The position numbers and the translations under genes were made by a program. From Escherichia coli (GTDB lineage: Bacteria; Pseudomonadota; Gammaproteobacteria; Enterobacterales; Enterobacteriaceae): DNA of 64,000 nucleotides. The stretch is from assembly GCF_003334385.1 (NCBI RefSeq), contig NZ_QOWN01000011.1. One strand, written 5' to 3'. Positions 22,262-47,348 of the stretch are shown piece by piece. The notes beneath the pieces are model-generated. The model saw only the letters and a program-made list of their open reading frames with translations, had not been told where the DNA came from and did no database searches. Within the stretch, counting starts at the first letter, position 1; every line of letters begins with the position of its first letter.

Positions 22262-22353
22262 AAAATATGTAGGCATGATAAGACGCGCCAGCGTCGCATC
22301 AGGCATCGAGAGCCAAATGCCAGATGCGGCGTGAACGCCTTATCTGGCCTACG
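22262..22353. repeat. REP element pair between convergent ybaL and gsk
   Basis: gcctgatgcgacgctggcgcgtcttatcatgcctaca and gccagatgcggcgtgaacgccttatctggcctacg palindromic units. Confidence 0.85.
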
Positions 22354-26754: not shown

Positions 26755-26797
26755 GATGAAAAGAAAAATGCCGGATGACACGAAGGTCATCCGGCAT
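26755..26797 (-). terminator. Rho-independent terminator of htpG
   Basis: Minus-strand hairpin atgccggatgacc-ttcgtg-tcatccggcat followed by a T-rich tract, immediately after the htpG stop. Confidence 0.75.
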
Positions 26798-29772: not shown

Positions 29773-31704
29773 TCAAATGGGGCGGATACTTTCTTCATCC
29801 AGCTCCGCATCGAAGAACCGACGCAGGGTCTGAATATTATTATCCGCAATAATGGACTCGCGCGCCTGCGCAAGTTTTTCTTCGTATATCGCCTGACGCC
29901 ACTCCAGCGGCGTACGCACCGCGGGATTATCATCTTCAACGATAGTCAGTTCAACCGTTGAACCTTTTAACATGCTCAACGCTTCAGCCAGTTTTTGCTG
30001 TGCACCGCGGTTGTTCAAATGCCGCTGAGAGGAGCGCAAATGCAGACATACTGCGTTGTCGCTCTCCTCTTTCCAGGCATTTAACGCCACCTGTTCGACC
30101 AGTTTTGGTAGCGAAAGTTGGCTCACCTGTGCCGCCCACGGGTCGCGCTCAATGGCTTCTGCCGCTAGCTTCGCCGCCAGTTCCGGCGTTTTTTCATGTT
30201 CCAGCGCTTTTTTCAGCGCCTTCGGCGTGGCGACCACTTCTTTTTGCTGCATCACCGGAGTGGTCGCCTTCCAGCGATACGCTTCTTTTTTGGCTGGCGC
30301 TTTTTCCAGCGCCGATGGCACCGGACGCGCCTGAACGCGATCGGTGACCGAAGCCAGTCTTTCCAGCGCAGCGTTATTCACCGGCCGCGCGCGGGTAGCG
30401 GCTGCCGGTTCACTCTTTTTTGCTTTGGTTGCTCCCTGCACGCGCTGCAACTGCTGGCGCGCCGCCAGCACCTGGCTGGTGGTTTCCGGGAGCGGTACAG
30501 TCGGTGCCTGCTGCGGCGCTGATTGCGGTTGCGGCGGCACCTGGGTTGGCGTCATTACTGCCGTTGGCGCGACGGGTGCAAAGGACTGTCGTGGCACTTC
30601 TGGCTCAGGCAGCGGCATACGCGGATGGAATGCCAGCGCGCGCAGCAGCGTCATCTCAACGCCCATGCGACGGTCCGGCGCATACGGTAATTCTTTGCGA
30701 CCAATCAACAGCGTCTGATAGTAAAGCTGAATATCCGTCGGCGGTATGGTGCGCGCCAGTTCACGCATCCGCAGCTCGATGGCGGCCATGTCGTTGCCAA
30801 GTGCAGCAGGCGAAAGTTGTACCATCGCAATACGATGCAACAGGCCGAGCATTTCCACCAGCAACGCTTCCCACTCGATACCACGGGCAGCGGCTTCATT
30901 AATCAGCGCCATTACGCGCTCGCCGTTGGCCTCGACCATCGCTTCAACCAGCGACAGCGCCTGATCGTCGTCAAGCGTACCCAGCATCGCACTGACCGCC
31001 TGGGTTGAAACCTGGCCGTCACCGCTGGCAATCGCCTGGTCGGTCAGACTTAAGGCATCTCGCAGGCTGCCTTCAGCGGCGCGTGCCAGCAATTGCAGCG
31101 CCCGCGGCTCGTGAGCGATATGTTCTTCGTTGAGGATGTGCTCAAGCTGATGGCGAATTTGCTCGACATCCAGCGCCTTGAGATGAAATTGCAGACAGCG
31201 TGACAAAATCGTCACCGGCAATTTCTGTGGATCGGTCGTCGCCAGCAGAAACTTAACGTGCTCCGGCGGCTCTTCAAGGGTTTTTAACAGTGCGTTAAAG
31301 CTGTGGCGCGACAGCATATGCACTTCGTCGATCAGATAAACTTTGAAACGACCACGCGCCGGAGCGTACTGGACGTTATCCAGCAGGTCGCGGGTATCTT
31401 CAACTTTGGTGCGCGAGGCGGCGTCGATTTCAATCAGATCGACAAAGCGCCCCTGCTCGATTTCACGACAGTTATCGCACACGCCGCACGGCGTCGCGGT
31501 AATGCCGGTTTCGCAGTTTAGCCCCTTCGCCAGCAGTCGGGCGATAGAGGTTTTTCCGACGCCACGGGTGCCGGAAAAAAGATAAGCATGATGAATACGC
31601 CCTAACGACAAGCCGTTCGCCAGTGCGGTCAGCACATGTTCCTGGCCGACGACGTCAGCAAAGGTTTGTGGGCGCCATTTTCGGGCTAAGACCTGATAAC
31701 TCAT
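29773..31704 (-). CDS. dnaX: DNA polymerase III tau subunit (gamma produced by frameshift), 643 aa
   Basis: AAA+ clamp-loader motifs (GTRGVGKTS P-loop, SRC motif) plus tau-specific C-terminal domains. Confidence 0.96.
   Translation of the reverse strand: MSYQVLARKWRPQTFADVVGQEHVLTALANGLSLGRIHHAYLFSGTRGVGKTSIARLLAKGLNCETGITATPCGVCDNCREIEQGRFVDLIEIDAASRTKVEDTRDLLDNVQYAPARGRFKVYLIDEVHMLSRHSFNALLKTLEEPPEHVKFLLATTDPQKLPVTILSRCLQFHLKALDVEQIRHQLEHILNEEHIAHEPRALQLLARAAEGSLRDALSLTDQAIASGDGQVSTQAVSAMLGTLDDDQALSLVEAMVEANGERVMALINEAAARGIEWEALLVEMLGLLHRIAMVQLSPAALGNDMAAIELRMRELARTIPPTDIQLYYQTLLIGRKELPYAPDRRMGVEMTLLRALAFHPRMPLPEPEVPRQSFAPVAPTAVMTPTQVPPQPQSAPQQAPTVPLPETTSQVLAARQQLQRVQGATKAKKSEPAAATRARPVNNAALERLASVTDRVQARPVPSALEKAPAKKEAYRWKATTPVMQQKEVVATPKALKKALEHEKTPELAAKLAAEAIERDPWAAQVSQLSLPKLVEQVALNAWKEESDNAVCLHLRSSQRHLNNRGAQQKLAEALSMLKGSTVELTIVEDDNPAVRTPLEWRQAIYEEKLAQARESIIADNNIQTLRRFFDAELDEESIRPI
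30410..30421 (-). other. dnaX: dnaX programmed -1 frameshift site (A AAA AAG, then GAG TGA in -1 frame) producing the gamma subunit
   Basis: Plus strand shows CTTTTTT at 30415-30421, the reverse complement of AAAAAAG; on the mRNA the -1 frame reads AAA AAA GAG TGA; a GC-rich stem-loop (CCGGCAGCCGC…GCGGCCGG) follows. Confidence 0.85.
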
Positions 31705-47234: not shown

Positions 47235-47348
47235 GGGTGGGGGCCCTGCCAGCTACATCCCGGCACACGCGTCATCTGCCTTGGCTGCTTCCTTCCGGAC
47301 CTGACCTGGTAAACAGAGTAGCGTTGCGGGAGAACCAACAGAGCCCCC
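47235..47348 (-). ncRNA. ffs: 4.5S RNA (signal recognition particle RNA), 114 nt
   Basis: Minus strand reads GGGGGCTCTGTTGGTTCTCCCGCAACGCTACTCTGTTTACCAGGTCAGGTCCGGAAGGAAGCAGCCAAGGCAGATGACGCGTGTGCCGGGATGTAGCTGGCAGGGCCCCCACCC, the 4.5S RNA sequence including the conserved SRP domain IV GGAA tetraloop region. Confidence 0.93.

Follow-up and report, generated by a model that had tools for sequence, protein, structure and literature searches.

The programmed −1 frameshift signal of dnaX in a K-12-like stretch of the Escherichia coli chromosome

The shift site of dnaX is the paradigm of programmed −1 frameshifting in bacteria and determines the proportion of tau to gamma in the DNA polymerase III clamp loader. 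According to PMC5009743, 50% of the ribosomes shift on E. coli dnaX and "terminate one codon later," and AAG is slippery because the sole tRNA-Lys of E. coli (mnm5s2UUU), which decodes both AAA and AAG, pairs weakly with AAG. Detection of the gamma C-terminal peptide ...KKE is reported in primary literature to which the same article refers. Frameshifting in vitro amounted to 84% and was reduced to 2% with G_AAG_AAG, to 20% by deletion of the hairpin, and to 50% by changing AGGGAG to AUAUCA (PMC5389563). The hairpin hampers translocation as well as the binding of tRNA to the A site, and AGUGA is the linker of wild-type dnaX (PMC7282821).

We analyzed a 64-kb stretch of E. coli DNA, hereafter called the window, in which a first-pass annotation had proposed the presence of this site. 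It is almost certainly the dnaX programmed −1 ribosomal frameshift signal of E. coli, identical to that of K-12 and already fully known. Our computations cover the assignment of the gene, all four signals with their phase and spacing, the match of the predicted product to gamma, and both conservation and covariation of the hairpin, while the efficiency and the kinetic mechanism are taken from the literature on the identical sequence. Finding the site confirms that the window represents a K-12-like E. coli chromosome and brings no new biology. The features of the locus are as follows.

29773-31704, minus strand: dnaX ORF in frame 0, with an ATG start, encoding tau (643 aa), from the ORF list and its translation.
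30410-31704, minus strand: coding region of gamma, read in frame 0 from 31704 to 30415, followed by a −1 slip, GAG at 30415-30413, and UGA at 30412-30410.
30376-30440, minus strand: whole cis-acting element, with the same coordinates from Rfam RF00382 and from the RefSeq "DnaX frameshifting element" of the K-12 record.
30432-30437, minus strand: Shine-Dalgarno (SD)-like stimulator AGGGAG, 10 nt 5′ of the heptamer.
30415-30421, minus strand: slippery heptamer A_AAA_AAG (Lys-Lys, in the P and A sites), supported by its sequence, its phase, the Rfam alignment, and the published shift site (PMC5009743).
30410-30412, minus strand: UGA stop in the −1 frame, the second codon past the slip, seen as TCA on the plus strand.
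30380-30409, minus strand: stimulatory stem-loop of 11 bp, at −19.1 kcal/mol by RNAfold, with the same structure as the Rfam consensus.

The dnaX gene and its two products

The sole long ORF that spans the site, 29773-31704 on the minus strand, matched the NCBIfam equivalog model NF005942, "DNA polymerase III subunit gamma/tau," over its full length (981.9 bits; cut-off, 613; E = 2.2e-295). The ORF is dnaX, and its sequence shows 100% identity with the gene of E. coli K-12 as well as with that of other strains. The gene is present in exactly one copy in 5425 of 5426 complete E. coli genomes, and its neighborhood in the K-12 record comprises apt, dnaX, ybaB, recR, and htpG. The 7.9 kb between positions 26773 and 34704 of the window are colinear with the chromosome of the E. 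coli K-12 isolate FW1541 (NZ_CM149693.1), from which they differ by 1 base, located outside dnaX.

Conceptual translation with the frameshift yielded a 431-aa gamma ending in ...KAKKE. Residue for residue, this predicted product is YP_009518751.1, "DNA polymerase III subunit gamma [E. coli K-12 MG1655]," and it is also the UniProt "Isoform gamma." The final Glu is encoded in the −1 frame only. Together with the full-length match to RF00382, the identity with the deposited K-12 protein bears out the initial claim that the site makes the gamma subunit. Among PDB chains, tau is represented by 8gj0_B (643 aa), a 431-residue chain is found in 8giy, and residues 1-373 of gamma are found in 1jr3.

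The slippery heptamer and its stimulators

On the plus strand, positions 30410-30421 read TCACTCTTTTTT, and the minus-strand mRNA reads A AAA AAG AGU GA. The A AAA AAG site, which the first-pass annotation had recognized from CTTTTTT at plus-strand positions 30415-30421, is indeed located there, and re-derivation of the reading frame placed it in phase within an ORF that is dnaX. The heptamer starts at base 1284 of the ORF, in codon position 3, which corresponds to the X_XXY_YYZ phase, and it covers codons 428-430 of 643, approximately two-thirds of the way into the ORF. Frame 0 reads GCA AAA AAG AGU GAA (A-K-K-S-E) at the site, and the −1 frame reads AAA AAA GAG UGA, with GAG (Glu) as the single sense codon before the stop. 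The −1-frame TGA had been described as immediate; it does occupy positions 30410-30412, but as the second −1 codon, after GAG.

The whole element matched Rfam RF00382 (DnaX ribosomal frameshifting element) in a cmscan search, with 96.8 bits (gathering threshold, 35; E = 2.3e-21) over model positions 1-65 of 65. The upstream SD-like AGGGAG, whose confirmation had been suggested, was found at 30432-30437, 10 nt 5′ of the heptamer. Six base pairs are possible between AGGGAG and the 3′ tail of 16S rRNA, at −7.4 kcal/mol, which places the motif in the top 23 of 1925 dnaX positions. Within dnaX, this anti-SD pairing is strong and not unique.

The strong hairpin expected just 3′ on the mRNA was recovered by folding. 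RNAfold predicted the structure .....((((((.(((((.....))).)).)))))).... for the 39 nt past the heptamer, at −19.1 kcal/mol, i.e., an 11-bp stem-loop that starts 5 nt past the heptamer, after the spacer AGUGA (30414-30410). The lower stem has 6 bp (30409-30404 paired with 30385-30380); it is followed by an internal A/G loop (1x1), by an upper stem of 5 bp in which one C is bulged, and by an apical loop of 5 nt (30397-30393). Compared with dinucleotide shuffles, the hairpin had a z score of −2.33, with 3 of 200 shuffles folding as well, a modest value that is due to the GC-rich nature of the region. Across the dnaX mRNA, the hairpin belongs to the most stable 0.6% of the 35-nt windows, which correspond to three loci. 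The hairpin region also codes for protein (SEPAAATRARPV), and some of its conservation is a consequence of this coding.

AAAAAAG by itself is not rare in the window, with 20 copies against 13.2 ± 3.5 expected; 20 copies were reached in 2 of 100 shuffles. What is unique in the window is the combination of signals. An SD-like motif within 25 nt upstream was present at 1 of the 20 heptamers, namely, the dnaX site (AGGGAG, spacing of 10), and the same site was the only one of the 20 with a −1 stop one codon away. It also had the most stable 45-nt downstream fold of the 20, at −19.7 kcal/mol. The 19 other copies were rejected as frameshift sites, being devoid of an upstream SD-like motif and having their nearest −1-type stop at least 5 codons off. 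Two of them are internal to dnaX, at 30285-30291 and 30207-30213 on the minus strand. They are in the AAA AAA G phase, with no SD-like motif and no near stop, and the frame starting at the heptamer is open for 170 and 144 codons, respectively. Both lie downstream of the real site and probably code for a Lys-Lys-rich linker.

The heptamer, the SD-like motif, and the hairpin might be regarded as a coincidence of protein coding, with any shorter product arising from proteolysis of tau, as in Caulobacter crescentus. AAAAAAG is common, two of its 20 copies in 64 kb being additional ones inside dnaX, anti-SD pairing about as strong is also found elsewhere in dnaX, at several positions, and PMC5009743 documents a proteolytic gamma in Caulobacter. 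Against this stand the uniqueness of the signal combination in the window, the 96.8-bit match to a curated covariance model, and the fact that the product ending with the −1-frame Glu is the curated isoform. With the comparative data presented below, in which hairpin pairs have undergone compensatory substitutions, some of them non-synonymous, and the structure upstream of the element is not conserved, we regard such a coincidence as extremely improbable and retain the frameshift signal as the explanation.

Other Rfam matches in the window were also inspected. A match to STnc460, a Salmonella sRNA, within the 3′-terminal part of dnaX (minus strand, 29833-29922) was discarded; its 25.3 bits (E = 0.078) fall short of the gathering score of 70, and it is most likely due to chance. 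On the minus strand, matches above the gathering score were obtained at 15033-15211, 22272-22349, 16509-16592, and 47244-47340. They represent three copies of the naRNA4/CssrE repeat (two of which also match on the plus strand), the sroB sRNA, and the small SRP RNA (ffs), which are ordinary for an E. coli region. No tRNA genes were found in the 64-kb window.

Conservation of the element in Enterobacterales

Within E. coli, 5402 of 5425 genomes show at least 99% identity over the 101-nt region that surrounds the site. For a cross-species comparison, species-representative genomes were scanned with the pattern AGGGAG-N10-AAAAAAGAGTGA, in which the hairpin is left unconstrained, and at least 120 loci were retrieved. 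The pattern fixes the SD-like motif, the spacing, the heptamer, and GAGTGA, so that the hairpin alone is tested independently, on loci that are phylogenetically related. Among the matches listed, 77 are dnaX of Enterobacterales, including Citrobacter, Enterobacter, Kosakonia, Pluralibacter, Buttiauxella, Serratia, Pantoea, Erwinia, Mixta, and others. Their tau proteins are 65 to 99% identical to that of the window, and the heptamer is in the same phase.

A hairpin was predicted for 75 of the 75 listed dnaX loci whose flanking sequence was long enough, which represent 56 distinct downstream sequences, with energies of −18 to −30 kcal/mol and one partial exception (L052, described below). It starts 5 nt past the heptamer, or 6 nt past it in Serratia. 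We then placed the E. coli structure on a MAFFT alignment, A1, of 52 distinct Enterobacterales sequences, in which AGGGAG is invariant by construction of the search pattern. Pairing was possible in 87.6% of the cells, compared with 29 to 53% (maximum, 52.6%) when the 3′ partners were slid by 1 to 3 columns. Double changes affected 5 of the 11 hairpin pairs, and the covariation score was 0.126, compared with 0.058 ± 0.007 in shuffles, none of which reached 0.126 (0 of 500). Of the 52 sequences, 32 close the hairpin with A-U and 18 with G-C, and the change on the 3′ side of this pair alters the encoded amino acid (GUG Val to GCC Ala). Similarly, a G-C pair of the lower stem is replaced by A-U in Mixta (L022), and the same replacement is found in the upper stem of L053. 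The alignment thus indicates that the hairpin is kept by compensatory substitutions across genera whose tau proteins are only 65 to 75% identical.

The covarying hairpin also bears on a second origin for gamma, slippage of RNA polymerase on the A run instead of ribosomal frameshifting, as in dnaX of Thermus thermophilus. The site does contain a homopolymeric A run, and this route to gamma is documented in T. thermophilus (PMC5009743). However, the run consists of 6 A's only (GCAAAAAAG), whereas the same article describes efficient bacterial slippage for 9 A/T. Moreover, an SD-like motif at a fixed 10-nt spacing and a covarying hairpin are ribosome-directed signals with no role in polymerase slippage, and mutations in the SD-like motif and the hairpin alter the efficiency in purified translation systems (PMC5389563). 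Transcriptional slippage therefore has next to no chance of being the source of gamma here, and ribosomal frameshifting is the reading that we follow.

The comparison yielded a small picture of the element in Enterobacterales, which is the sole new by-product of this work. The lower stem, the spacer, the heptamer, and the SD-like motif are fixed, in a set that was selected on the SD-like motif, spacer, and heptamer, and the upper stem and loop have at least two architectures. In the E. coli type, the upper stem is GCCGC/GCG(C)GC, one C being bulged, and the loop has 5 nt. The second type has GCGC/GCGC (GCGCG/CGCGC in some Pantoea) and a loop of 3, 5, or 8 nt. The contrast is visible in columns 39-54 of A1, between L041, L078, and L023 on the one hand and L004 and L007 on the other. 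RNAalifold on the MAFFT alignment returned the lower stem and one upper pair only, because the upper stem has two registers among genera. When counted with the E. coli structure, pairs 41-51 and 42-50 score as unpaired in the GCGC-type sequences. Loss of the hairpin in the latter was rejected as an explanation, since their individual folds show a hairpin, and the low score is a matter of alignment and architecture.

The partial exception, L052, comes from "Candidatus Pantoea persica." By eye, it has an apparent 12-nt deletion relative to other Pantoea, through which the upper stem and some of the 3′ arm are lost. A short hairpin, GCCGG-CAGCG-UCGGC, could form from the remainder; the fold favored by RNAfold is another one, of longer range. 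The efficiency of frameshifting may be altered in this symbiont. Another record, L065, is titled Chryseobacterium sp. 18061 (Bacteroidota) and carries an enterobacterial dnaX. Its product shares 85.7% identity with E. coli tau, a value also obtained for Citrobacter sp. 18056 (L062). The frameshift elements of the two records differ by two loop bases. This suggests that the Chryseobacterium record is contaminated or mislabelled.

Among the matches listed, approximately 34 Collinsella loci (L002, L003, L012, L013, and others) were set aside as they are not dnaX. They correspond to the ribosome-binding site and first codons of a gene for an RpoD/SigA-like sigma factor. In these loci, as at positions 2457-2484 of the plus strand in L003, the full pattern AGGGAG-N10-A_AAA_AAG-AG-UGA is located at the very beginning of the gene. 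AGGGAG serves there as the genuine ribosome-binding site, a GUG start codon follows 5 nt later, and codons 2 to 4 are CCA AAA AAG, which puts the heptamer in slip phase with GAG UGA in the −1 frame. No obvious hairpin was found after the Collinsella heptamer. The pattern is probably a single coincidence that recurs because Collinsella is represented by many species; if functional, it would predict early abortive frameshifting. Approximately nine further matches among those listed are singletons and fit the chance expectation.

Two additional hairpins flank the element on the minus strand, one upstream at approximately 30452-30470 and one downstream, starting near 30339. Their folds, at −19.1 and −20.0 kcal/mol, tie with or slightly exceed the stimulatory hairpin, and the three are the strongest 35-nt folds of dnaX. 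The upstream hairpin has the sequence UGCUGGCG-GCG-CGCCAGCA. No conserved structure was detected in the 48 nt upstream of the SD-like motif among 76 distinct upstream sequences, despite the equally stable hairpin of K-12, and this hairpin is not kept even in Escherichia albertii or another E. coli. It was therefore ruled out as an additional stimulator. That the flanking hairpins tune the efficiency of frameshifting in a strain-specific manner, for example, with the upstream hairpin as an attenuator, appears very unlikely, as the lack of conservation within Escherichia argues against a function of the upstream one. We also observed that the codon just before the Gln-Gly codons that contain AGGGAG is GUG (Val) in K-12 and GCU (Ala) in E. 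albertii and another E. coli.

Proposed mechanism and comparison with known systems

None of the data contradicted the frameshift-signal explanation. Ribosomes that translate the dnaX mRNA would meet A_AAA_AAG with tRNA-Lys on AAA in the P site and on AAG in the A site. At that point, the 11-bp hairpin, 5 to 6 nt downstream, would sit in the mRNA entry channel and slow translocation, with AGGGAG, 10 nt upstream, presumably not yet released from its pairing with the 3′ end of 16S rRNA. A large share of the ribosomes (about 50% in vivo) would then slip back by one base, both tRNAs pairing anew on AAA_AAA. The shifted ribosomes are predicted to read GAG (Glu) and then UGA, releasing the 431-aa gamma, and the unshifted ones to stay in frame 0 and produce the 643-aa tau.

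The element of the window is the same as the described E. coli dnaX element (RF00382) in its gene, its position, the phase of the heptamer, AGGGAG 10 nt upstream, AGUGA, the bulged 11-bp hairpin, GAG-UGA, and the 431-aa gamma, and nothing differs between them. The orfA-orfB sites of IS911 and the IS3 family resemble it by their A_AAA_AAG-type heptamer, often with an upstream SD-like stimulator, and by a downstream structure (PMC5009743). In those elements, however, the shift extends translation into a second ORF and yields a fusion transposase, whereas in dnaX of the window it leads to truncation after one codon. Their 3′ structure can be a three-way junction or a pseudoknot, in contrast to the simple hairpin of dnaX. 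The dnaX gene of T. thermophilus shares both the gene and the outcome, with a tau:gamma ratio of about 1:1 (PMC5009743). The route is different: polymerase slippage on A9 with stops in both alternative frames in T. thermophilus, and an A6 run accompanied by ribosomal stimulators in the window.
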